A DNA stretch of 57,705 bases, counting the filler, from Sphacelaria rigidula (Eukaryota), in NCBI GenBank assembly GCA_964200075.2. It is 6 parts of 6 records of this genome, joined end to end, with 100 filler letters (N's around TTAATTAATTAA, not from the genome) between each part and the next. Parts side by side here need not be neighbours in the genome. Positions count along the whole stretch, not along the records: positions 38,539 to 48,072 come from CAXNAA020008277.1; 5 more parts are not named here. One strand, 5' to 3'. Numbering within the stretch: the first letter of the stretch is position 1; the number at the start of each line of letters is the position of its first letter. The notes below the pieces were generated by a model. It made no database searches. It was not told the origin of the DNA and saw only the letters and a program-made list of their open reading frames with translations. Of the stretch, positions 9,536 through 48,211 are shown in pieces. Made by a program: the position numbers and the translations under genes.

Positions 9536-9635
9536 NNNNNNNNNNNNNNNNNNNNNNNNNNNNNNNNNNNNNNNNNNNNTTAATTAATTAANNNNNNNNN
9601 NNNNNNNNNNNNNNNNNNNNNNNNNNNNNNNNNNN
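9536..9635. other. Artificial contig linker N44-TTAATTAATTAA-N44
   Basis: Identical 100-bp spacer with stops in all six frames. Also at 19171-19270, 28805-28904, 38439-38538 and 48073-48172. Confidence 0.97.
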
Positions 9636-19170: not shown

Positions 19171-20566
19171 NNNNNNNNNNNNNNNNNNNNNNNNNNNNNN
19201 NNNNNNNNNNNNNNTTAATTAATTAANNNNNNNNNNNNNNNNNNNNNNNNNNNNNNNNNNNNNNNNNNNNGGAGAGATGGGTTGATCCCTTGAGACGACG
19301 GACTCATCCCGAGGAAGGGGAGGGGTTCAAAGTGCGACGAAAAACCTCGTGTGGTTCTTATAGTAGTGTTGAGCTCCTGTATCGACATATCCATGAATGG
19401 TGCTATCGTCATGATTAATACGCAAGTTTCTGCGTTCCTCACGTGTCGACGTGTGATGTGCACGGCAATACGTTGGCTCTACTCATCACGGGAAGGCATG
19501 TGACGATACGGAGAGAAGAGGCAGGGAGACATACAGTACAATCTCCGTCAGCGATTCTTTGAGGAGTATGTAGGTGGGAGCGATACCCTGTCCGCTGGTA
19601 TTGGTCGAAAAGGCCGACGTTTCAAACCATCAGGAAAGTTTGGTCGATCGCACCCCAAAGGGGACGAAAAAGCACGATTTGCTTTGAACGGAATTGTTTG
19701 AACGTCGATTACTCCAGCCGCGACCCTCGTATCGTTTCACGACGCCGAACGCGGTTGACAAAATTGTAAAAACAGGTAAATCTGTGGTCTGGCGCGAAAC
19801 TCGACCCACTTGCCATCATCGACCTCATGACAACGCCCTCGATCGCCGGCTTGCGACAGGTTGGTTACGTTGGTTACTCACCCGTCGGTTCTGTGTATCT
19901 TTTTGACGCCCTTCTTGATCAACCCGCGCAGACACGTGAAGGCACTCACCTTACTGCAGATTGTATTTGTTATTTGTACCTTGGTGGAGAGGCTTGGTTT
20001 TTCGTCCAGCAAACCGCTTTCCCCTATACGTGTCGGCGCCCATTTGTCCACACACGTTTTGCACCGTTGGAATTTCTAGCCTAAATTTGACGAAAATCAG
20101 ACGTGAGTGCAGATGCCCACGTCTACCCACAGTACAGTGCCAAGCAATTGGGCGAGGAGGTAACCCTCAGGCTCAGTCAACTTGCACTCTAGCTTCACTG
20201 GCCGAAAGTGTCATGGGTCCACCATTGAAAATAGCTCGTCGGTGATGCCGTAGAAACGGTCGGATACCAACCGGCTAGAGACAATTTCTTCCAGTAGCAT
20301 CATCGTCGGTGTTCCCCGTACTCATCCCCTGTTGTCAAAGTGCATGGCGAGCGTTCAAACCGACCAATTCAGGGTACAAGCGGGGTGATCCTTTGACATC
20401 TTACTGCTTAGTGTGAACGCAGTTGTACAAGAAGTGACTGACTGACTTTTGTTCCTTTTCGGGACCATCGGTTCTCCACGACAGATGGTTGTGTTTCTTA
20501 TGCATTCGTTTTTCAAACAAGAGACTACCGGGGAACAGATGGGTTGGTCCCTCGAGACCATCAGAG

Positions 20567-25200: not shown

Positions 25201-26975
25201 AATCCTTGCATCTTGCAGGGGCGAGGGGGAAGCTCCAGATTCAGCGGCGTGGGCTACGTCTACGTGCACCATGACCAACGGGAAACAGGTGCCGTACACA
25301 ACTCAACATCCGTGTTGGAGAGCCGGGTAATATGGTGTGCCCATACTGTAAGCAATAGGTGAAAACGGCTGAAGACCAGAACTTGGTAGGTGGCTATATA
25401 CCACGGCCACAAAACGAGCTTCTTCCGGTGGTGGTTCATTCATTTAGGGCTCGGCTGGGGTGGGAATCACGTCGTAGCTGCACAAAATATTCTTTTTCAG
25501 AGCCATGCCCCAAAATTACAGGAGTTGGTCAACGCAAGCTTTAGATGGCACGGCGTCTATTTTTTTCAGCGGCATTTCTGTTGTGGAATCACGGAGGAGA
25601 TACTCACATATTCCGATATCTCGTAGAATCAGATGTGTAGTCTTGTTAGTAGCGGAAACAACGCTCAGTCGTGACATCACTTTACCAATACATTACCAAG
25701 ACCGGAGACGTAAAACTGCAAGATACAATATCATATGACATGAAACGAATATTATTGGCAGCTGCAGATATTTGCTACGTAAAAGTACAGGTAGATCCGT
25801 TTAGACGCCGGTGGAACAGGCTATTGCCATCTGAAGCCAACACTCAGCTCGCCCCCTGACCACGGCCACCGCACCCACACTCTGTTCTCCGACTCGAACC
25901 CCGCCCTACCTAAACCACAGGCCGCATGGGCATCAATGCTACTGAGGGGTGGGGGTGCCGACACTTCCCCCCACCTCGTGGCCGACCCTGCCGAATCCAA
26001 TACGGTGACAGGGTCCGACCTGGTGAAGGGAGGCGAAATACCGGTGTTGCTTGCGTCGGATGCTCTCGGTCGCATTGGCCTTCTGCGGTACCCCGCTGAC
26101 TTTCCAGAGACCCCAATAATCCCCGTGGTCGAGCCTGCGTCTGGTGAGAACAGTGTTCGAGCGTTGGAGAGTGGGGAAGAGGGAAACGACCACATGTGTC
26201 CAGATACTGGAAATTTCATATGGATTAATGAAGAACGCGAGGTCGGAGCAAGCAATACTGGGGAAGTAAAAGTTAAATGATGCCTACTGCTAAGTCCGAG
26301 GTTGGACTTCCCCTCCCTTCTTTAAGACTTAAATGCCTCTCGTCCTCAAATCATTGCCTGGCGAGAGACCAGGCACTAGAACCAGGGCGGGGGAGGGGGC
26401 TCGAAATATTGGCGTTTAAGACGTGAACATGGCAACATCCGGACGCGTCTGGCATGAGATCAGAACTGCTAGGTGGTCTGCGGTAATGAGATATCCCTTA
26501 TTTCAGGCGTACCGGCTGATTGATTAACTGATTGATTGTTGAGCACTAACTGATGATTATCCAACAAGATAGGCATGCTCAGGATGAACAAAAAGGGAGG
26601 GCCCGCTGAACAAAGGGAAGAGTGCAAAAAACGATGGAACACGCAAAGCGTTGACTGACAAGCCAAAAACAAAACAAAACGAAACAACGAGATCGGAACG
26701 AACAAGGAAGGGGCAAACAGAAGCGAATTATGCAGAAAACAAAACAACGTGAAGAACAGGAGCGAACAAGAGCACGAAGCAAACGTAAGCGCAGAGGAAA
26801 AAGCAAAAGCAAAAGCAAAAGCAAAAGCAAAAGCAAAAGCAAAACATAAGCAGAAACATCAAAAACAAAAAACATAACGAAACAAAACAATACAAAACAA
26901 AAACAACAAAAACGATCAAAACAGAAACGGAAGCGAGACAAGAACAGAAAAACAAAAATGGAAACAAGAAAAACG

Positions 26976-27007
<32 letters not shown>

Positions 27008-28643
27008 CAAACACGAAACAAAGTCAAACCAGAATCAAAACCAGAAGCAAACGAAAACATCAACATACACATGAACACGAACATAAACATGAACATAAAT
27101 ATGAACAATAATATGAGCAAAAACATGAACAAGAACAAACGCAAACGAAAACGCAAAACAAAACAGAAAAACAAGCAGGAAAGAAATTGATAAGAAATAT
27201 AAAAAGTAGATATTATCGAAGATATATATATATATATTAGCAAAACGAACTAAACCTTGCACATGGCTTCAGGTGGATAAAGGTCGACACAAAAGTCGCA
27301 TGCACCCATACACAAGACAAGACAAAAAACGGTGGAAACACATCAACACGTCGACACCTAGCCGCGACACACGCGTCTTCCGACCTGCCTTTCCTTTCCT
27401 TCCCGAACTTGTTTTCTACTTCCACCTCGACTGGCGAGCAGATGACCCAAACGCACCGGCCTTAGGGGAGGAGGAAATCCTCGCAGCTAAGGCATTGGCG
27501 GTCGAGCAAGAGAAAGCTATGGCCAAGGCGGTCGATTTGGCGATCCCTCGCGTTTGTATGGTGAAAGCTCACTCCGGAAAGGTGGCGGCCACTCGTCAGG
27601 TCGGGGAGGGTGGTCAAGTACTCACGCTGGGTGCTGCCGACAGGTGACCTCTGCAGAGGGTACGGAGAAATAGAATGACACAAACTTGGAGAAAAGTTGT
27701 ACTCATCTAACCTGTGTAGTGCAAATAGAAACTGGACGGCATTCACGGCGACATGTGGTGTTAGCGGGTAGAAGTCTGATGGTTTGAGAAAACCCTGCTA
27801 GGCTAAGAGAAATGCCTAATATTTACGATAGGCAGTGATGTCGTTGAATGTTTAGCCGAAGCAAGCGGAAATAATTGGGGAAATCCACTGATTCGAGGAT
27901 ATCTACTGCTTTTTCGATTAACCGAACGTATCGGGTGAAGCCTTACGGCGCAATAGACCGTTGCAGCGACCCGCCAGGTTGGAGAGGGCTATCAAGTTTG
28001 CTCCGGATGCAATCGATAGACCGGTTTTCTATAACCTAGGACGCGAGTTTGGATGACGGGAAAGAGCGTGGCGAAATCGTGCCGGATACGTCCGCCTGTA
28101 ACGTTAAAGGCATTCTCATGTTCGGTTCGGCGAAGGGATTTGCCCGGTTGAATCAAACATTCGAGCATACGTAATTAGTGCAAGAAAAGAAATTTAATAC
28201 AAACCTTCATATATTGAATTCTATAAATTGCTACCCTTGCGCCACGTGCGCGTATTCGTGGCCCGTGACCGTAGACTACGGGGAGAAATGCGGCAGAAAC
28301 ATTCCAGACCAATCCGCTTGTAGCTGCACGTTGCGAAATACCTGGGGGGTATGTTTGCATGCTCGCACCAAGTGTGGCCAAATGCTTGAAACATTTCAAA
28401 GTATTTTTTGTTACTCCTACGAATATATCTAAAGTATTCGTGCTGTCATCAAGTCAAAAACATTGTGCTCATACCAGGTGCGTGTATCAGTGGACCGTGG
28501 CCTTGGAAGATGGAGAGGAGAGCGGTGAGGACATGCCGGACACACCCGCCTGTAACGCTCCACAGCCCAAGCCCGCCGCGGAAGGAGAAGGTGACGGCGA
28601 AGGGGAGGATGAGCCGGATGACGACGAAGAAGAAAACGTCAAA
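20821..28643 (+). CDS. Multi-exon EML (echinoderm microtubule-associated protein-like) WD40 protein, internal fragment
   Basis: Nine phase-consistent AG/GT exons: 20821-20926, 21079-21266, 21738-21823, 22654-22777, 23490-23645, 24249-24385, 25219-25288, 25921-26143, 27442-27643, plus 28478-28643 as a tenth. Motifs VLVGTLGSDILEL, FVTVGDDGTVRVW, SVAFSPD..FIAVG, CVRFSPTG..LAAGSSDG, MDFTVDGEF, WATSTCT, LLRYP, AHSGKV and DRCVYQW follow EML-type beta-propeller order. Confidence 0.85.
22244..22298. repeat. (GT)n microsatellite
   Basis: Read directly from the sequence. Confidence 0.95.
26585..27250. repeat. A-rich low-complexity tract of mixed microsatellites (AAAAGC, AAAAC, AAAACG, AACAT)
   Basis: Read directly; lies in an intron of the EML-like gene. 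Confidence 0.9.
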
Positions 28644-28904
28644 GTGAGCATTTCAACTCACGGTACATGGCATGTGTACGGCGTAGGCTACTTCACGTAC
28701 ATATCTTCTCCGCACCGTTGATCTCGAGGGTATGGGGTGTACTCATGATCATGCATGCCATAGTCATCAGATTATTGACCTCGCATCCCTACAAAGCCGG
28801 GACGNNNNNNNNNNNNNNNNNNNNNNNNNNNNNNNNNNNNNNNNNNNNTTAATTAATTAANNNNNNNNNNNNNNNNNNNNNNNNNNNNNNNNNNNNNNNN
28901 NNNN

Positions 28905-38144: not shown

Positions 38145-40096
38145 GTAAGCTATTGTGGTATTTTCTTGTGCAGGGCGCCGGGTGCATATATGGTATAGTG
38201 TAGTGTTGCACTCTACCGCCGACACTTTCTACGATAATCCCCTCCCGAAACCAGCCCAAAACTGTGACGAAGAAAATGGCCATACAGCGCCTGATATTTG
38301 GTTTCAGGCTGCATGAAGCGCTTCATATATGGGCGACATTGGCGAAAACGAACCCAAGCGTGGGAATTCCCAGCTGCTCGTTGTGCTCGGCTTTTTTCAT
38401 TTCGATCAACGTGTAGATCTTTTCCTCCAAAACCAGTCNNNNNNNNNNNNNNNNNNNNNNNNNNNNNNNNNNNNNNNNNNNNTTAATTAATTAANNNNNN
38501 NNNNNNNNNNNNNNNNNNNNNNNNNNNNNNNNNNNNNNCTGATGCGCACCGCCTCTTTCCCCTCGCTGTCGCTGGCACCTTTTCCACGAACCAGACGAAC
38601 CTCCCCGACGGAGACACGATCGAGCTCAACAAGGCCTTGGAGGATGTCGTGTCTAATGTCGCCGGAGTCGAGAGTGCCCAGCTGCTCGGCATGATGAGTC
38701 CTCTTTTCGATCGTGGGTACCCGCCTAGTGTTGAATGTGTCGGTATCGTCTTCGCGTGGTGCCAAGTAAATGGATACGTTTGGAAGCATCATCCCCACAC
38801 GGGACAAAAGGACGTCTTGTTTGCGCCAGTTTCTAATTTGAAGTTGTTGAAATTCGCCCAACTGTACTGAAGCGCCCGATTTATCGACTGTAACCTGCCC
38901 CATTACTTCTTGCGATCGCCCGTACCCTTCGCCACTGCCCCCGATCTGTCATTTCCGCAGTATCATGCAGAAGACGTGCAAGACGCATCTCTTTCAAGTG
39001 TCGACGCTCGGCGTGACATCAAATTGCGCAGAATCAGCGATTTGTGTAGGCCACGTACTGTCCCTCAAGGAGGACAGCACGGATGGGGTAGAGGTGGAGC
39101 AGGAGCGGCGGTCTTGAAGTCTACCGAGACCCAGCGTCCGGTGTTCGTTGTACTGTTGATTGCTGTTCAGCACAGCATGACGGTTTGTTTTTGGTTAGCC
39201 AGTTCCAAGTGCTCCCGGTGTTTTGCAGCCGATTTGCTGATGCGGTAGCATTTGTTTTCCCCGTGTTGATGGCTTATGAGCTATTCTTGATGGGTGCGTC
39301 GGCACACGTTTCGGGTGCATTTTCGGAAATCCGATGCGGTTGGCAAGAGTCCCTGGCAAAATCGATTTGCTGCAGCTCATAGACGGGAGGCGCTCCATTG
39401 GCTTCGTGCAAGAGAATTTGTTATGATCCGCTGCCATCAAGGGTGAGATCATGTAACAAAACCCAGCGTCCCGCCACGTTTTTCGACTTTTCTCGGCACG
39501 AAAAGGCGGGATATCAGCAGTCATATCACACGCAATGACTTGCGCTTTCAAAAACAACGACGGAAACTGCGGCGGGATTGTTGAACAGAAAAGTGATTTC
39601 AAGAGATCCACGAGTCCCACGTCCACACGACGAATGGTGGCATCAACTGCATTTGCGAATGAATTCGGGCACAACCTGGCTAAATCGTATCTCTTACTCG
39701 AACCACACGACTCACACTACTTTGGAGACATCTTGAACGGTGCATTTTTCCACAAATGCGACCTGTGGGCCAGCGCGCAACATTTTTGAACATTATTCTG
39801 TCATTCCATTCCGGCAACGGGTGGCAGGAATTTTCCAACATGCTACATATGTAAACGTTTCGTCTCATTATCGGAACCGGCGCAGCGGGACATGTGATGA
39901 ATAAAACCTCACTCTCAATCGTACTTTCAACGCTCGATTTCACGTAAGCAATGTTAGGTTTGCCGGCAGGATTTTGCACCAATGTGCGAGGTGAGCGTTA
40001 TGTCCATTATTGATGCAGACACACCCGGCCGCTGAAAGCCATGAAAAGCCTGCTCTCAATCGTATCGTAGATTCTCAATCTCACGAAAACATTGTT

Positions 40097-40711
40097 GAGT
40101 GTGAATGATGCCGATTCAAGAACCTCCGACCCTCGCGGTCAAAGAGATGAGCAATCGTAGTTCTGACAGCTCTCATAGCTCATCCAGGGCAACCGTTCGC
40201 AGCTCACCTAGCTCTCGTCGCTCATCCAGGGCAAACATGGGTAGCTCATGCATCTCTCAAAGCTCATCCAGGGCAAACATGTGTAGCTCATGCAACTTTC
40301 ATTGCTCATTCGGGGCAAACATGCGTAGCTCATGCAGCTCTCATAGCTCACCCAGGACGAATATGAGCTGATGGGCTACGGGTTGGTAGCTCACCCAGAA
40401 CAAACATGCGTAGCTCATACATCTCTCATAGCTCACCCAGAACGAATCTGAGCTCATGAGCTACGGGTTGGTAGCTCACCTATCGCAAACGTGCGTAGCT
40501 CATACAGCTCCCATAGCTCACCCAGGGCGAATATGAGAGGACGAGCTACGGGTTGGTAGCTCACCTATCGCAAACGTGCGTAGCTCATACTGCTCTCATA
40601 GTTCACCCCAGGAAAAACATGCGTAGCTCATGTAGCTCTCATAGCTCACTAGGGAGCAACGCTCAAAAAGAGCTAGCTCGAGCTATAGGAAGCTGATTTG
40701 CCCGACGTGTG
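40097..40711 (-). mobile_element. Inverted sister copy (one end) of the TIR element at 41009-42363
   Basis: Reverse complement matches 41009-41477, including the terminus CCGACGTGTG and the AGCTC-rich subterminal repeats. Confidence 0.8.
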
Positions 40712-41008
40712 AAACGCTACCAGCAATTGAAGGAACGGAACAATATTTCGAAGATTTGTAGTGTATACGAAGGATTTCATTCTCCGGGATTCTCGTCCTA
40801 AATAAACAGTACATCCCCAATTTGTAAAATGCCGTGTTTATAATACAGTAGAGGACAATGCAGTACATGACACAGTACAGCATAGTGCGGTATAGTGCAC
40901 AGAACTGACTGCATCCAAACTCACGCTATAATGACGCATTTTCGACTGCACTTTTCACACACAGTTCAAAGTCGCCGACTGTACCACGAAACATGCATGC
41001 AAACATTT

Positions 41009-42363
41009 CACACGTCGGACAGATCAGCTCCCGATAGCTTGATGAGCTAGCTCCTTTTGAGCGTAGCTCCCAAGTGAGCTATGAGACTCCCTAGTGAGCT
41101 ATGAGAGCTACATGAGCTACGCATTTTTTTCCTGGGGTGAGCTGTGAGAGCTGTATGAGCTACGCACATTTGCCCTGGGTAAGCTACCACCCCGTACTTC
41201 ATCAGCTCAGATTCGTCCTGGGTGAGCTATAAGAGCTACATGAGCTACGCATGTTTGCCCTGGGTGAGCTACCAACCCGTAGCTCATTAGCTCATATTCG
41301 TCCTGGGTGAGCTATGAGAGCTGCATGAGCTACGCATGTTTGCCCCGGATGAGCTGTGAGAGATGCATGGCCTGTACATGTTTGCCCTGGATGAGCTATG
41401 AGAGCTATGAGAGCTATGATTGCTTATCCCTTTGACCTCGAGGGTAGGAGGTCCCTGCATTGGCATCATTCACACCCGAATGATAATATAAGTCATGCTG
41501 ATTTATGAGATCGCCAACCCTCGCGGTCGCAGGGCTCATCCCTTGACGGCGAGCATAAGTCATGTGTTGAATCGGCTCCAATTTCACTTGAAAAACGTAT
41601 GTATGACCAGATGGACTCGTACCCTCGCGGCCAACCGTTCAAAAGAAATGAATCGGTCGATTATTGTAGACACTGAGTGTAAATACTTTTTTCAACCATC
41701 CAACCAAGCGAACGAGGATACGTGTTGGCCTCTTTTCTTCCTATCGCAAGGAGTGAGGCAAAACATCACAACCTAATGATATATGGCGCCATCCATTCGA
41801 AACAAAATGTCAAATCATAAGCGACACGGGGTTGGCCAGCGGTGAGCTAGGCACATGACGTGAGTCAGCCACGTCCACGTGTCCCTGGGGTGAGCTACCG
41901 GGCGTAGCTCATCCGCTCATGTTTTCCCCGGGTGAGCTACAAGAGCTGCGTGAGCTACACACGTTTGCCTTGGGTGAGCTATTGAGTGTAGCTCATCGGC
42001 ATATGTTTTCCCTGGGTGAGCTGTGAGAGCTACATGAGCTGCACATGTTTACCCTGGGTGAGCTACCAACCCGTAGCTCATCAGCTCATATTCGCCCTGG
42101 ATGAGCTATGAGAGCTGCATGAGCTACGCATGTTTGCCCTGGGTGAGCTATGAGAGCTGCACGAGCTACGCATATTTGCCCTGGGTGAGCTACCATCTCG
42201 TAGCTCATCAGCTCATATTCGCCCTGGGTGAGCTACCAACTCGTAGCTCATCAGCGCACGTTTACCTTGAGTTGAGCTATCGGACTTAGCTCACATGTAC
42301 ATGTTTGACTACAAGTGAGCTACCGCCCGCAGATGAGTTAGCTCATGAGCTGTCCTACGTGTG
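41009..42363 (+). mobile_element. Non-autonomous TIR DNA transposon with 8-bp TSD
   Basis: TIRs CACACGTCGGACAG / CTGTCCTACGTGTG (13/14 match). Flanking direct repeat AAACATTT at 41001-41008 and 42364-42371. Dense GAGCT subterminal repeats at both ends. No long ORF. Confidence 0.85.
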
Positions 42364-43939
42364 AAACATTTGCTGTGCTTTTTTCGCGCAAGCATCATTT
42401 GACATGGTTCTTCTCCAGATGGACTGTATACATCATGGACGACCCTCTACGCCTCGCCAACCCGCCGATTACCGCCATGGCCAGCGACTGGCGGCGTACC
42501 ATTGCGGTCGCCAGGCAGCAATGCAAAGAATCAACGATCCATACCACGTAAAGCCGGAAACCGTCTCCTTTGCATTGAGAAGGCGGCACCGACTGCTTGG
42601 CCATGAATTAAGCCTTCCATCAATGCTGCTTGTTGGACCCCTTCCCCACATCGGGGGCGCAACCCTCATGTCAACTGTACATGCTCTGCGGCTGATTTCA
42701 ACTCAAAGATTATAGTACGACTTGTGTACGTGACCAGGCACAGACAAAAACAAATCTTCCCGCGTGAGACTGAGTAGCTTGCTTGCCTCTGGAGTCCTTG
42801 ACAACTTCAAGTAGGATATCGACATGTAGCTGTAAGCACACGCCAGAGTTACAAAGGTAAGCAACACAGAATGAAAGCTTAGTCAAAATTGAGCGGATGA
42901 TGAAACTCACTTTCGATCAACGCTCTACGCTCTCACATCAAAATATTGCTTACCGTACAGGGTAACACACCACAACAGTACGCCATGCTGCATCTTACGA
43001 ACTTCGAAAATTGCCGTTTTCGGTGATTATACACCAGCTGTGACGACGCAAATCTGTTGTAACTCCACCTCTACTATCAGACATGACCGTTGGCACACTG
43101 GTTCGGTATGGCACAAGCAGCGAGTGCACCAAACGGCGCCGCGTGCCGAGGCAGTCGCAAAACGACAACAACCGTGATCTCCGAATTTCTGCCAAAACGA
43201 CTGAAACGCCGTCAACACCACGATTCGCGGACGAAACAAAAGCAGGGCAGCTCCTACGCTGGCGAACAAGATTGATCTATACTGGGGTACTCTCTAGATG
43301 ATATCGTACAGAAAACAGGAATTTCCATGAGAGAATTGCCTGTACAGGTCCTAATTCTACTCGGTACAACCGTACGCGGGCTATCGGAAATGCGAGGCAC
43401 TGAATTTTCGCACGCATGCCCTCTGAAGCTCAGTCAACAAAACTTCATGCCCATAGATCTCGAGTTACGAGCTGAGCAGCGCGCAACGGGGCGAAAAGAG
43501 ATCAAACTTTGTCCTGAAAGTAATGTGTTTTCGTTCTCAGCCGCAGCACAGCTCCACCCCCTGTACTGACCCATTTCACCAGAACCCGTTGTATTCCCGG
43601 TGTGCAGCGGTATGAAGTAAGGCTACAACTGCACCTTCCTGCATAGCGACCTGCCGAAAGCGTCGAGGTAACTAGAAGCACCATGCCAATCGACGTGAAG
43701 TCAACGGAAAGTCAACTAGCAAGCAGATCACCATGCCCAGCAGAATATCACTGAAGATCAGCCCTAGTCACAGAATGATCGAAAAACATGTTTCGCCCGT
43801 GTGTGCCTCCACCAACTAACATGGAAACACAGCGACACCATACATCTCGGAAACAACCAAGCTAGTGCCTATCGCGTAAATCTGTACGAAATAATTGCCT
43901 GCTTACAAGACACACGGCGAAACATCACCATGTCGGATA

Positions 43940-46405
43940 TCAGCCGGGATAAGGATGTTCATGGACGTTCACATCAAGCAATAGATCTCGCGTGCCGGAT
44001 GCTGCCACTAACACTTGTCGAGAACGGGCGGAAACATCCAATTCTAACTTCACATCGGATCTCCTCTCTTCAGCCAACCCTTCATCCCCCGCTGCCACAT
44101 CGAATAACGGCTCCACCCGCAACGTTCTACGTAGCCGCTTTGCGTTCCTTTCACTAGCTATGCTACCACAACTCCCATTTAAAGCAGTGCTGCTGCAGCC
44201 GCCGTTGCCCATACTGATACTACTACTGGATAGCGCAGTATCTAGCTTGCTGCTGGTTCCTATACCCTCGAAACCTCCCTGAGACGTAATGGTCGCCTCG
44301 AGTTTCACTTTCATGCGCGTCTGTGCCCCACTTAGAGGTATCTCATGCACTGCCGCAGCGCCGGGGCATCGTCCCGAGGCGGCAGGCGATATGGTCGAAC
44401 CCTTTCCCCTCCGTTGTTCGACACGAACGGCACGCGGACTGCGACTAGAGTTAGCGCTACAGCTTCCCTCGTTCGTGTCGGGATCGGCATCCGATGGATG
44501 GCTGGATCCTTCATGATCATAAACACCGACACCATTCTCTCCCACGGCAGAGTCTTCGTCCAGGCGATTTTTTTCTTGGACACGTCCTGCTGTATCAGAC
44601 GCCATGGCCAGGTCATGTACAACATGACGGCTGGAGTTCCCGTGCTCCTGCACCCGGGTGACAGGAGGCTGCAAGGCGTATTCACTGCCATTCATAGAAC
44701 CTGCGCAGGCGTGAGTTGCGCAAAACGCCGCCTTGCTGCCACAAGCTGCATCGAACAATGGGTATTTGGAGCAGCCCTCCGTGCCGCACCGCCTGCTTCG
44801 TACGTCGACCATACCCCGCCGGGCATGTGTGGCGCAGAACTCCGCCTTCCTGCCAGCGGCTGCACCGAACGATGCTCGTCGAGAGCAACCCTCCTTGCCG
44901 CATCTCTTGTTTCTTACATCCACCATGTCTGCCGGGGCGTGTGCGGCGCAGAACTCCGCCTGCTTGCCACCAGCTGCTCCGAACGATGGGTATTTGGAAC
45001 ACCCCTCTCTGCCGCACCGCTTGCTCACTACGTTGACCATGCCCGCCGGGGCGTGTACGGCGCAGAACTCCGCCTTCCCGCCACGGGCTTCACCGAACGA
45101 TGGGTATTTGAAACAGCCCTGCTTCGCGCACCGTTGTTTTCTTATATTGACCATGTGTGCCGTGGCGTGTGCGGCGCAGAACTCCGCCTTCCTGCCCACG
45201 GCTGCACCGAACGATGGGTGTTTCGAGCAGCTCTCCTCGCCGCACCGCTTGTTTCTTACATGGAACATGCCCGCCGGGGCGTGTGCGGCGCAGAACTCCG
45301 CCCTCCCGCCACCGGCTGCACCGAACGATGGTTGTTTGGAGCAGCCCTCCTGGCCGCACCGCTTGCTCACTACGTTGACCATGCCCGCCGGGGCGTGTGC
45401 GGCGCAGAACTCCGCCTTCCCGCCCACGGCTGCACCGAACGATGGTTGTTTTGAGCAGCCCTCCTGGCCGCACCGCCTTTTTCTTACATTGACCATGTGT
45501 GCCGTGGCGTGTGCGGCGCAGAACTCCGCCTTCCAGCCACCGGCTGCACCGAACGATGGGCATGTGGAACAGCCCTCCTCGCCGCACCGTTGTTTTGCTA
45601 TATTGACCATGTGTGCCGTGGCGTGTGCGGCGCAGAATTCCGCCCTCCCGCCACCGGCTTCACCGAACGATGGGTATTTGGAACAGCCCTCCTCGCCGCA
45701 CCGTTGTTTTCTTATATTGACCATGCGTGCCGTGGCGTGTGCGGCGCAGAACTCCGCCCTCCCGCCCACGGCTGCACCAAACGATGCTCGTTGAGAGCAA
45801 CCCACCTTGCCGCACCACTTGTGTCTTACATTGACCATGTCTGCCGGGGCGTGTGCGGCGCAGAACTCCGCCCTCCCGCGACCGGCTGTACCGAACGATG
45901 GAGATTTGGAACAGCCCTCCCTGCCGCACCGCTTGTTTCTTGCATCGACCATACCCGCCGGGGCGTATGCGGCACACGACTGCGCCTTCCCGCCACCGGC
46001 TGCGCCGAACGATGGGTGTTTGGAACAGCCCTGCCTGCCGCACCGCTTGTTTCTTACATCGAGCATGCCCACCGGGACGTGTGTGGTGCAGAACTCCGCT
46101 CTCCTGCCACCGGCTGCACGGAACGAAGGGTGTGTGGAGCAGCCCTCCTTGCCGCACCGCTTGCTTACGACATTGACCATACCCACCGCGGCATGTGCGG
46201 CGCAGAACTCCGCTCTCCTGCTACCGGCTGCTCCGAACGATGGCTGCTTTGAGCAGCCCTCCTCGCCGCATCGCTTGTTCACTACGTTGACCATGCCCGC
46301 CGCGGCGTGTATGGCGCAGACCTTCGGCTTGCTGCTACCCGATAAGGCATACACCGCTCTCGTAGTGCAACTCATATGGGTGCACACAAACGGCATATCC
46401 TCCAT
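43940..46405 (-). CDS. EsV-1-7 cysteine-rich repeat protein, 15 tandem 38-aa C-x4-C-x16-C-x2-H repeats, single uninterrupted ORF (821 aa from the first ATG)
   Basis: Open frame 46483-43940; first ATG at 46405. Repeat consensus KRCGxEGCSxxPSFGAAGGxKAEFCAAHAxAGMVNVxx is the EsV-1-7 motif of phaeoviruses and brown algae. 114-bp nucleotide periodicity. An upstream exon cannot be excluded. Confidence 0.92.
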   Translation of the reverse strand: MEDMPFVCTHMSCTTRAVYALSGSSKPKVCAIHAAAGMVNVVNKRCGEEGCSKQPSFGAAGSRRAEFCAAHAAVGMVNVVSKRCGKEGCSTHPSFRAAGGRRAEFCTTHVPVGMLDVRNKRCGRQGCSKHPSFGAAGGGKAQSCAAYAPAGMVDARNKRCGREGCSKSPSFGTAGRGRAEFCAAHAPADMVNVRHKWCGKVGCSQRASFGAAVGGRAEFCAAHATARMVNIRKQRCGEEGCSKYPSFGEAGGGRAEFCAAHATAHMVNIAKQRCGEEGCSTCPSFGAAGGWKAEFCAAHATAHMVNVRKRRCGQEGCSKQPSFGAAVGGKAEFCAAHAPAGMVNVVSKRCGQEGCSKQPSFGAAGGGRAEFCAAHAPAGMFHVRNKRCGEESCSKHPSFGAAVGRKAEFCAAHATAHMVNIRKQRCAKQGCFKYPSFGEARGGKAEFCAVHAPAGMVNVVSKRCGREGCSKYPSFGAAGGKQAEFCAAHAPADMVDVRNKRCGKEGCSRRASFGAAAGRKAEFCATHARRGMVDVRSRRCGTEGCSKYPLFDAACGSKAAFCATHACAGSMNGSEYALQPPVTRVQEHGNSSRHVVHDLAMASDTAGRVQEKNRLDEDSAVGENGVGVYDHEGSSHPSDADPDTNEGSCSANSSRSPRAVRVEQRRGKGSTISPAASGRCPGAAAVHEIPLSGAQTRMKVKLEATITSQGGFEGIGTSSKLDTALSSSSISMGNGGCSSTALNGSCGSIASERNAKRLRRTLRVEPLFDVAAGDEGLAEERRSDVKLELDVSARSRQVLVAASGTRDLLLDVNVHEHPYPG

Positions 46406-48211
46406 GACCGTACGAGGAAAAAACACGAGGCTAGTCCCGCTGCTGCTGCTGCTGCTGCTGCTGCTATCTCCGCCGTCACGCACCCGCTCTTGAAGAACAG
46501 CTCACCAATCCAGCAGCAGCCTGTTTCAACCAACCAGCAGAGATCATGATACGTTGGGCCTATGAAGAAGGCAGGCGAACCGTTATATTAGAAGCTCGGT
46601 CGCGAGTATGCACGTGGGCCGGAGTGAACTGACCAGCCAACCGTGGAGTCACCAGTCGACAAGAATAGATACTGCACCACGGTCGCTACAGCGTGGACAG
46701 CGCATTTTCTATGAGAAATGTAGTACCGAGAGAGCTTTTCAAAAACGTTGGGTCGACTGAGCATACGGAGGAACATTGAACTCTAACTATGCAACAAAAG
46801 TCCATCGCGCCGACATCGCTCGTGCGGCTTCTCCACCGATCAGAAATCCTTTAAACACGATGCGTCCATGGCCACTCTAAATTTCGCGCCTCGCGTCGGG
46901 GGTCAGGTTCACGTGAATGATATCCGTCAGCAATAAACAATCGGCGCCGGGAGTTCACACTGGGCGAGTAATGAAGTAGGTGTACAGATCTGTCGATACA
47001 TCACGTGTTGAGCGTACTGTCATGCGCTGTTTGGAAAGACAGCTCTATCCTGCGTGGGCAGGCAAAGGGTCCTCCACAATGCATATAGTAACGCTAGGCT
47101 CTGACAGGGATATTGTAAACGCCACTGAACCAGTCACATGGAATTCGCCTGGGAAGCGTTACTTCGTTGTTGGATCTTTGCAGCAGTAGTAGTTGTTGTT
47201 GTTGCCACTGCTGGTGTGAACACCGATACGTGTGACGCTATGAGGTGGCGGGAGAAACTTGAATGAGCTGACAGGTGTTGGGCTCGGAAGTATTTGTCTA
47301 TACAAAACCTGGATGCGGAAACAATGATTTTCGGACACGCTCATCCCCCCAACAACCGGCGCCTTCCGGAACAACACATTAGCATGGCGCGAGACAACGG
47401 CTACCGGCGGGCCATGCAATGCGTGGAGCTGGGGGGCTACAGGGACTTGACTTTCTGTGGGGATAAAATGACTTGAGTAGCCATAGTACACGTGGGTTGA
47501 TCTTCCACACGGTGCAGTTCAGAAGCGCAGGGCTCAGTGGAATTGGAATCGGGACTGCTCTGAGGTCACAATTGTGGTACGTGGATACTCGAAGCCTCAA
47601 GCTCGGGCGTTTCTCTGCTGCTGGGGACGCCATACCCTGGCGTGACGTTTTCAATTCGAGGGAAAATTCCGCAGGGAACGTAAATGATAAGAACGCACGA
47701 AATCGGCGGACCATCGATGGGGTTGGCGTCGGTTGGCGATGACGCTATGAAACACGCCACTCGCTACGTAAGCTAGGCAACCAGGTTACCGGGGTTTGTT
47801 CGCGCTTGCGTTATTTGTTTTGCGGTAACCATGATGGTAGTCGAGCCAGATCATGTTGTGCGGCGTGGGAGAACCTCAACTCCGCACAATGGGGAGGGTC
47901 GTTCCACGTAGTGTCTAAATGGTGAGGCACCCATGAGGCAGTGTGTGAGCTGTGACTGTCTCGAAAAGTGATAATACCAGAGAATAAAGGTACTCATTGT
48001 AGGCTGTCATCCAGATGCAAGATAATCAGTAGGCTTTGGGTCGAACAATCTTAGCAGGATGCAGCTCACACTNNNNNNNNNNNNNNNNNNNNNNNNNNNN
48101 NNNNNNNNNNNNNNNNTTAATTAATTAANNNNNNNNNNNNNNNNNNNNNNNNNNNNNNNNNNNNNNNNNNNNCCAGAGAGGGGGACACGGGCGCACAGAA
48201 AAAAGGGGACC

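Follow-up and report, generated by a model that had tools for sequence, protein, structure and literature searches.

The EsV-1-7 repeat array of a Sphacelaria rigidula gene and the behaviour of column 12, a candidate specificity residue of the repeat

Does the EsV-1-7 repeat carry a residue that sets one unit of an array apart from the next, and if so, what could such a residue read? The question is raised by a gene on the minus strand of the window, i.e., the whole 57.7-kb stretch of Sphacelaria rigidula DNA that we analysed and along which all coordinates are counted, in which 15 EsV-1-7 repeats stand between an N-terminal poly-Ser segment and a C-terminal tail (Table 1). An initial annotation had proposed that a hypervariable pair of residues makes this array a reprogrammable reader of DNA or RNA, akin to transcription activator-like effectors (TALE), pentatricopeptide repeat (PPR) proteins and PRDM9. 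We find that the gene itself is an ordinary member of the EsV-1-7 family, and that the useful result is the family-wide behaviour of a single position, column 12 of the repeat, which differs between the units of an array, stays largely unchanged in orthologues and changes fast in recent duplicates.

According to the available portions of the Phaeoexplorer preprint (bioRxiv 10.1101/2024.02.19.579948), the EsV-1-7 family is greatly expanded, with 2018 members in 31 genomes; it is possibly a new class of zinc finger, its function is called unknown, and it includes the developmental regulator IMM, in which five repeats follow a unique N-terminal domain. The expansion in brown algae, which the initial annotation had mentioned, ranks with the largest of any gene family there. 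Family members are listed in Supplementary Table S17 of the preprint, and the present gene may already be among them. Three further sources also treat the family (10.64898/2026.04.27.720984, PMC7457493, PMC12993054), the first two likewise calling its function unknown, and none of them names a ligand in the portions available. Within the same limits, the EsV-1-7 literature gives neither structure nor code for the repeat and does not mention a repeat-specific residue. A literature search also returned nothing that pairs the SBP domain with the spacing formula of the repeat, nor WRKY19 and zinc finger with EsV-1-7.

The gene is a member of this known family: its product matches the Pfam profile EsV_1_7_cys (PF19114) with an E-value of 6.7e-190 and 615 bits (cut-off: 25) over 15 stretches. 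The first Cys of the units falls at residues 34 + 38i (i = 0–14), i.e., with a period of exactly 38 amino acids, and Tandem Repeats Finder reports one array at 44718–46320 (period 114, 14.1 copies, 81% matches, score 1799), so the 15 head-to-tail units of 38 amino acids (114 bp) first described are borne out. Columns are numbered here from three residues before the first Cys, which puts the zinc ligands at columns 4, 9, 26 and 29. The C-x4-C-x16-C-x2-H pattern initially ascribed to the repeats is complete in 14 of the 15, and the three Cys are present in all of them, but repeat 4 has a broken ligand set, the only one, with TAC (Tyr) for CAC (His), and is possibly a weakened unit. From its ligand pattern, each Cys3His unit probably binds zinc. 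At the DNA level, repeats 2–14 are 69–92% identical to each other, repeat 1 is 46–61% identical to the other repeats and repeat 15 is 46–74% identical. An 18-mer noticed from the start as recurring almost unchanged is indeed found 11 times with at most two mismatches (7 times exactly), at spacings of 114 or its multiples, and 0 of 100 shuffles contained any match. The array is strongly basic, with 84 Lys and Arg vs. 36 Asp and Glu, which gives its 570 residues a net charge of +48 and an isoelectric point of 9.5.

From repeat 1 to repeat 15, the residues at column 12 read R Q H H S R Y C Q Q H Y Y R Y. Over repeats 2–14, this column has the highest entropy of the array (2.45 bits), with six residue types (Q, H, Y, R, S and C). 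The pairs first listed for repeats 2–15 (KQ, TH, KH, KS, QR, KY, TC, KQ, KQ, KH, KY, KY, RR, KY) are exact, as is the variable repeat end, but the hypervariability belongs to the second residue of the pair, i.e., column 12; the first, column 11, is K in 9 of the 13 repeats 2–14 (1.35 bits), less variable than columns 6 (1.95), 1 (1.83), 33 (1.67), 21 and 31 (both 1.57) and 19, and it is K in 143 and K, T or R in 272 of 334 repeats family-wide. The rule that R at column 12 is always followed by A had a similar fate: it holds within the array (3/3 R repeats, 0/12 others), where repeats 6 and 14 may have inherited the combination together, but it does not extend to 334 repeats of 98 other proteins (R with A: 14; R without A: 75; A without R: 34; neither: 211; odds ratio 1.16, p 0.72).

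Pooled Nei–Gojobori comparisons between the repeats of the array yield proportions of synonymous (pS) and nonsynonymous (pN) differences of 0.278 and 0.169, respectively, and a ratio of nonsynonymous to synonymous substitution (dN/dS) of 0.55, which falls to 0.42 outside the variable columns; the value of 1.47 obtained for hand-picked variable columns reflects a circular choice. In scaffold columns, codons vary synonymously and the amino acid stays the same (e.g., column 9, with TGC and TGT at 7 and 6). Column 12 exceeds every other column in pN (0.55), and the corresponding synonymous value for its codon is 0.58. Since the neutral yardstick comprises only 3 four-fold sites, parsimony ratios and their P values are void, and no conclusion on positive selection is drawn. 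The overall ratio, the closeness of the two values at column 12 and the several other columns that are almost as variable would all suit an array that binds nucleic acid or chromatin by charge and without sequence preference, column 12 being simply its most tolerant surface site. We regard this explanation as unlikely because of what is seen across the family.

Across 26 arrays with at least 5 clean repeats, mean within-array entropy is highest at column 12 (1.86; next columns: 1.45 and 1.37), which is thus the most variable column within arrays family-wide, and R, Q, H and I occur there most often. The column also comes first among the arrays with at least 4 repeats, both in a cluster of 34 arrays with a nuclease-like tail (1.88, followed by columns 10, 28 and 14 at 1.77, 1.77 and 1.74) and in 62 other arrays, mostly from brown algae (1.88, followed by columns 10 and 31 at 1.84 and 1.75). 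Adjacent repeats share their column-12 residue in only 0.19 of 457 pairs, the lowest value of the 38 columns, and repeats of different proteins in 0.14. The resulting ratio of adjacent to unrelated identity is 1.35, vs. 1.94–3.61 for 13 other variable columns, and column 12 therefore nearly lacks the array-wide signature that the other variable columns bear, which is not what a merely tolerant site would predict. Moreover, its strongest coupling to another column, measured by mutual information, has a z of 7.5, vs. 10–16 for columns 6, 10, 17 and 31.

Among 37 repeat pairs of close orthologues, 35 have the same residue at column 12. A deep orthogroup spanning Ectocarpus and two other lineages keeps the column-12 series R-I-N/T-(T)-I-Q: in this group, column 12 differs in 15 of 125 orthologue pairs vs. 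128 of 144 between-repeat pairs, whereas columns that are equally different between repeats differ in 28–60% of orthologue pairs. That a series should persist in three lineages while the other variable columns diverge to this extent again argues against non-specific binding. The proteins of the orthogroup (P0080/P0082/P0086, P0060/P0065 and P0050/P0059) have a long N-terminal domain and 5–6 C-terminal EsV-1-7 units, a layout that recalls IMM, although identity with IMM is not established by this likeness.

For a broader comparison, 17 groups of homologues at least 65% identical, each represented by one pair, were drawn from 214 proteins and 1337 repeats (an isoform pair was left out, and orthology was judged by identity alone). 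No column differs more between repeats than column 12 (0.89), while its difference between homologues (0.18) is below that of eight of the nine other variable columns (0.20–0.32) and equal to that of column 27 (0.18); a tolerant neutral site would be expected to evolve fastest between orthologues. In the 15 orthologue-like groups, column 12 differs in 9 of 82 homologous pairs vs. 173 of 729 at the nine other variable columns (Fisher p 0.008, a post hoc value), which counts against the neutral evolution that the initial annotation had named as the outcome fatal to its proposal. In contrast, it differs in 7 of 9 pairs vs. 21 of 79 in the two remaining groups, both made of same-species paralogues of Sphacelaria rigidula, and over all 17 groups the difference fades (16/91 vs. 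194/808, p 0.19). This last value also suits non-specific binding, under which the conservation of column 12 in close orthologues would reflect short divergence time. Altogether, a site that is held between orthologues and changes between paralogues fits a specificity-determining position and argues against a neutral one, and the young repeats of the Sphacelaria array fit the duplicate side of this pattern.

AlphaFold2 models were computed for four repeats (with a 93-row alignment; mean predicted local distance difference test, pLDDT, 91; predicted template-modelling score, pTM, 0.54) and for one repeat (pLDDT 80.6). In both, DSSP assigns single-residue beta-bridges at columns 3 and 12 and strands at columns 15–17, 23–25 and 34–36; a 3-residue helical turn at columns 27–29, i.e., at the Cys-x2-His, appears in the four-repeat model only, and no helix reaches 4 residues. 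The models thus predict small beta/zinc-knuckle units instead of the helical repeats of the TALE and PPR proteins with which the initial annotation had compared the array. Each unit would consist of a knuckle hairpin, a second hairpin and the start of a helix, which is the layout of treble-clef-type fingers, and column 12 would lie opposite the conserved basic column 3 and pair with it. Among relatives, columns 10, 12 and 14 are variable and are interleaved with the conserved columns 11, 13 and 15, so that the variable ones would share one face of an extended strand; the residues two positions either side of column 12 also vary in many relatives.

The closest folds found with VIA-align (best Z 2.4 for four repeats, 2.8 for one) were RING and B-box fingers and the coronavirus nsp13 zinc domain. 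The best RING/B-box match (Z 2.8, root-mean-square deviation 3.1, 43 residues aligned) is weak, and the EsV-1-7 unit has one zinc site, not two. Structures of SBP, WRKY and GCM domains are not among the fold-search matches listed, which does not exclude them. A sequence search of the PDB with the array gave 0 matches at E up to 10, and profile searches of the PDB with the repeat relatives (E up to 10) and with the nuclease-like tails (E up to 1) gave one chance-level match each.

That the only structural neighbours found are RING/B-box fingers (Z 2.0–2.8 over 38–43 residues; Z 2.1–2.4 for the four-repeat model) raises the alternative of a protein-binding scaffold made of such fingers, in which column 12 would tune the choice of partner or the packing of the units and no nucleic acid would be involved. 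Repeat-specific, orthologue-conserved residues suit protein interfaces equally well, and DNA binding is not demonstrated in the available portions of the EsV-1-7 literature. Nevertheless, the Z scores are far below the level treated as meaningful, a protein scaffold would not usually be as basic as this array (net charge +48), and the repeat occurs in nuclease-like and transposase fusions, where DNA-binding domains usually sit. This alternative thus seems to us rather doubtful.

The nuclease-like fusions come from the database relatives of the array protein, 39 of which have a non-repeat region in common, mostly C-terminal. When 31 metagenomic relatives are aligned, this region displays invariant P-D, E, D and H columns (consensus RPDF...VIxExDExQH...FIRxNPD) and, from its sequence, looks like a PD-(D/E)xK-like nuclease. 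In one of these nuclease-tailed proteins it weakly matches the Holliday-junction resolvase Hjc (Pfam: E 7e-4, 19.9 vs. 21.1 bits; NCBIfam: E 4e-5, 23.4 vs. 70), a family reached at E 0.1 or better by 3 of the 93 relatives scanned, and PHROGs returned 0 families for 6 proteins of the cluster. Two extra C-x2-C motifs are also observed after the array in the same 31 proteins, along with the conserved domain. As for transposases, the available part of one study describes an Ectocarpus mariner-type transposase with an N-terminal EsV-1-7 domain (PMC12477816). In individual predicted proteins, the repeat occurs together with C2H2 fingers, Sir2 or a chromo-like domain, combinations that may be gene-model fusions.

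A further clue is a resemblance to the DNA-binding domain of SBP (SQUAMOSA promoter-binding protein; PF03110): two repeats of the array align without gaps to positions 1–35 of the 75 of the Pfam profile (E 0.02, 15.6 bits vs. a cut-off of 27), and SBP is reached at E 0.1 or better by 9 of the 93 relatives (best: 0.0021). Positions 1–35 are what we take to be the first SBP zinc site, presumably with the same C-x4-C-x16-C-x2-H spacing. With a score below the cut-off and the second zinc site absent, this likeness is a resemblance, not membership. Partial cross-matches among the 93 relatives involve Zf_WRKY19 (10), the nsp13 zinc domain (9) and zf-primase (7). Taken together, the net charge, the nuclease-like and transposase fusions and the SBP resemblance are hints of DNA binding.

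We therefore favour, with a rough probability of 0.4, a reading in which the array of zinc units binds nucleic acid and column 12 contributes to specificity. Each 38-residue unit would bind one zinc through its four ligand columns, and its fold would combine a zinc-knuckle hairpin with a second hairpin and a short turn of helix; the units would form a basic string on an extended ligand, for which DNA is the most likely candidate; column 12, in the knuckle hairpin and bridged to the conserved basic column 3, would be the main residue for unit-specific preference; and the conserved, slightly acidic tail would carry an effector or regulatory role. Several results weigh against this reading. A pTM of 0.54 gives no fixed arrangement between repeats and no confident solenoid, Foldseek found nothing in the PDB at E 0.001 or better with either model, and the fold matches are all weak and point to RING/B-box fingers, which bind proteins. 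The SBP and Hjc similarities are below curated cut-offs, the second SBP zinc site being absent, and the Pfam scan found neither a nuclease nor another known effector domain in the array protein itself. Regarding column 12, its entropy lead is narrow, columns 10, 14, 17, 28 and 31 being nearly as variable in the wider set; parsimony on the repeat tree (codon positions 1 and 2) counts 7 changes at column 12 and also 7 at column 6; and, besides the p of 0.19 over all groups, the p of 0.008 needs an independent repeat because the paralogue groups were removed after seeing the data.

A bolder version of the favoured reading, in which EsV-1-7 repeats are new modular sequence-reading zinc fingers and column 12 determines which short step of DNA (or RNA) its unit prefers, appears improbable to us, and a strict code of one unit for one step is likewise improbable. 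If the repeat were such a modular DNA reader, the expansion of the family and the nuclease-like and transposase fusions would be accounted for, and a programmable scaffold of a new kind would become available; this one scaffold would have served brown algae and giant viruses as the basis for hundreds of regulators, transposases and nucleases, each with its own address. In any case, column 12 is a defined target for mutagenesis and gives binding assays a specific hypothesis.

The best database relatives are Sphacelaria rigidula proteins (45–55% identity over 60–64% of the query), followed by proteins of Ectocarpus, Scytosiphon, Pylaiella and Ascophyllum and by many metagenomic proteins; a viral-contig search by single protein gave 12 pattern matches and no relative. 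The tail, mildly acidic (net -5), is 40–49% identical over 216–234 amino acids to the tails of the three best Sphacelaria rigidula proteins in BLAST searches, with KRLR and FDVAAG...VK.ELDVSA as conserved motifs. It has no Pfam match and gave no ESM Atlas lead; a search of a large database with residues 601–847 also came back empty, which is attributable to the sensitivity limit of a word index, since BLAST does find the three Sphacelaria tails. From these relatives and the shared tail, the gene is a host gene of the brown alga and belongs to a small tail-defined subfamily, within which its array is unusually long. In two Sphacelaria relatives (P0002 and P0004), some units lack cysteines (e.g., Arg or Tyr at Cys columns); arrays of the subfamily thus decay as well as expand.

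The three tail-sharing relatives have 4, 7 and 5 units of the strict Cys/His pattern, and none of the contig pieces listed for four sequencing runs spans the middle of the array, so that the window assembly is the sole source of the 15-unit count. In a gene so prone to repeats, the array might then have expanded recently and be functionally idle, or its length might be inflated by the assembly, which would also agree with the lost His ligand of repeat 4. Yet the reading frame (847 codons) runs uninterrupted across the 15 units, with Cys intact in 15/15 and His in 14/15, scaffold columns change only synonymously (dN/dS of 0.42 outside the variable columns), and contigs from two studies match both array edges with zero differences; this explanation is accordingly very improbable. 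Regarding expression, contigs of three small runs (guessed to be RNA) match 42813–44851 and 45850–46429 without differences and their depth is almost nil at 46430–46940, while a DNA-like run covers the entire region. This pattern is a weak transcript hint at most and is not used as evidence; contig ends at 46429 are uninformative on the transcript start, because read mapping skips the (GCT)9 microsatellite. Finally, summed word depth in array bins reaches about 100 times that of the flanks; contig depth is not copy number, and the excess may reflect many similar repeats elsewhere in the genome.

Table 1. Parts of the EsV-1-7 array gene, in coordinates of the 57.7-kb Sphacelaria rigidula window.
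Feature	Position	Strand	Basis or remark
Open reading frame, 847 codons + stop: N-terminal poly-Ser, 15 EsV-1-7 repeats, 247-aa C-terminal tail	43940..46483	-	Open reading frame and Pfam scan
Probable coding sequence from first ATG (residue 27, MEDMPFVC...)	43940..46405	-	Start inferred; upstream exons possible
Array of 15 x 38-aa (114-bp) EsV-1-7 repeats, residues 31-600	44684..46393	-	Tandem Repeats Finder, Pfam, Cys spacing
Column-12 codon of repeat 1 (repeat r: 114*(r-1) bases lower)	46358..46360	-	Computed from reading frame
Repeat 4, Tyr at zinc-ligand His and Ser at conserved Phe (column 25) before third Cys	45938..46051	-	Alignment
C-terminal tail, residues 601-847	43943..44683	-	Shared with three Sphacelaria rigidula proteins
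(GCT)9 microsatellite on + strand; nine Ser in minus-strand open reading frame, upstream of first ATG	46439..46465	-	Tandem Repeats Finder and frame

The array gene is taken to be a single-copy host gene of the brown alga. A profile built from its repeats and run against the six frames of the window found no further copy, with 15 matches at the locus and one chance hit (E 1.6). The window has a G+C content of mostly about 43–55% and contains few long open reading frames (20 of at least 150 amino acids, seven of which overlap the array locus); the long plus-strand frames across the array arise as by-products of its G+C-rich repeat, and a protein family is matched by the minus frame only. Word depth in the sequencing runs is very high at 40166–42255 and 47476–48000, so that the gene is flanked by high-copy repeats. 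The first of these intervals, just downstream of the gene, holds 42/85-bp satellite blocks in both orientations. Elsewhere in the window, positions 26001–28000 have an AT skew of 0.355 (A over T), far above the remainder, and pairs of 44-N runs, 12 bases apart, occur at 9536–9635, 19171–19270, 28805–28904, 38439–38538 and 48073–48172; their spacing of about 9634 bases is too regular for natural gaps, which makes an artefact of masking, assembly or processing likely.

Compared with the known EsV-1-7 family (Ectocarpus IMMEDIATE UPRIGHT, gene 7 of virus EsV-1), the Sphacelaria protein has the same repeat, ligand spacing and tandem 38-residue units in a brown-alga host, and it differs by the length of its array, the 10 homologues scanned out of 108 having up to 14 Pfam stretches, and by its tail, which it has in common only with the three Sphacelaria proteins. 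The metagenomic arrays with a PD-(D/E)xK-like (Hjc/Vsr-like) tail share the repeat, the behaviour of column 12 and its residue alphabet; the window protein is devoid of such a domain, the assignment of which relies on weak matches and conserved columns. With SBP, the ungapped match pairs residues 4–38 of the repeat with profile positions 1–35, whereas the second zinc site and the basic tail of SBP are absent from EsV-1-7 units.

The initial comparison with TALE, PPR and PRDM9 systems survives in that a fixed site, not neutral-looking in its evolution, individualises the repeats; it is one residue, however, in a unit that is not helical and in an array that is not homogenised. A PRDM9-style homogenised minisatellite is ruled out by the synonymous divergence between the repeats (pS 0.278; dN/dS 0.55), and DSSP, with its short strands, and the pTM of 0.54 do not show a TALE-type helical-hairpin superhelix. 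No C2H2 Pfam match was obtained at E up to 0.1 with the whole protein or up to 10 with two repeats. Polydactyl C2H2 arrays (KRAB-ZNF, PRDM9) have another ligand pattern and another fold than predicted here, and the candidate specificity residue of EsV-1-7 would lie in a beta hairpin, not in a helix; nonetheless, both are long tandem series of zinc units in expanding families, with a few varying positions on a held scaffold. Similarly, the EsV-1-7 array departs from TALE and PPR codes, being non-helical, without a confident solenoid or a repeat-to-base register, and varying at a single residue, not a di-residue, but it has in common with them one fixed position that varies between repeats and is kept, repeat by repeat, between orthologues.

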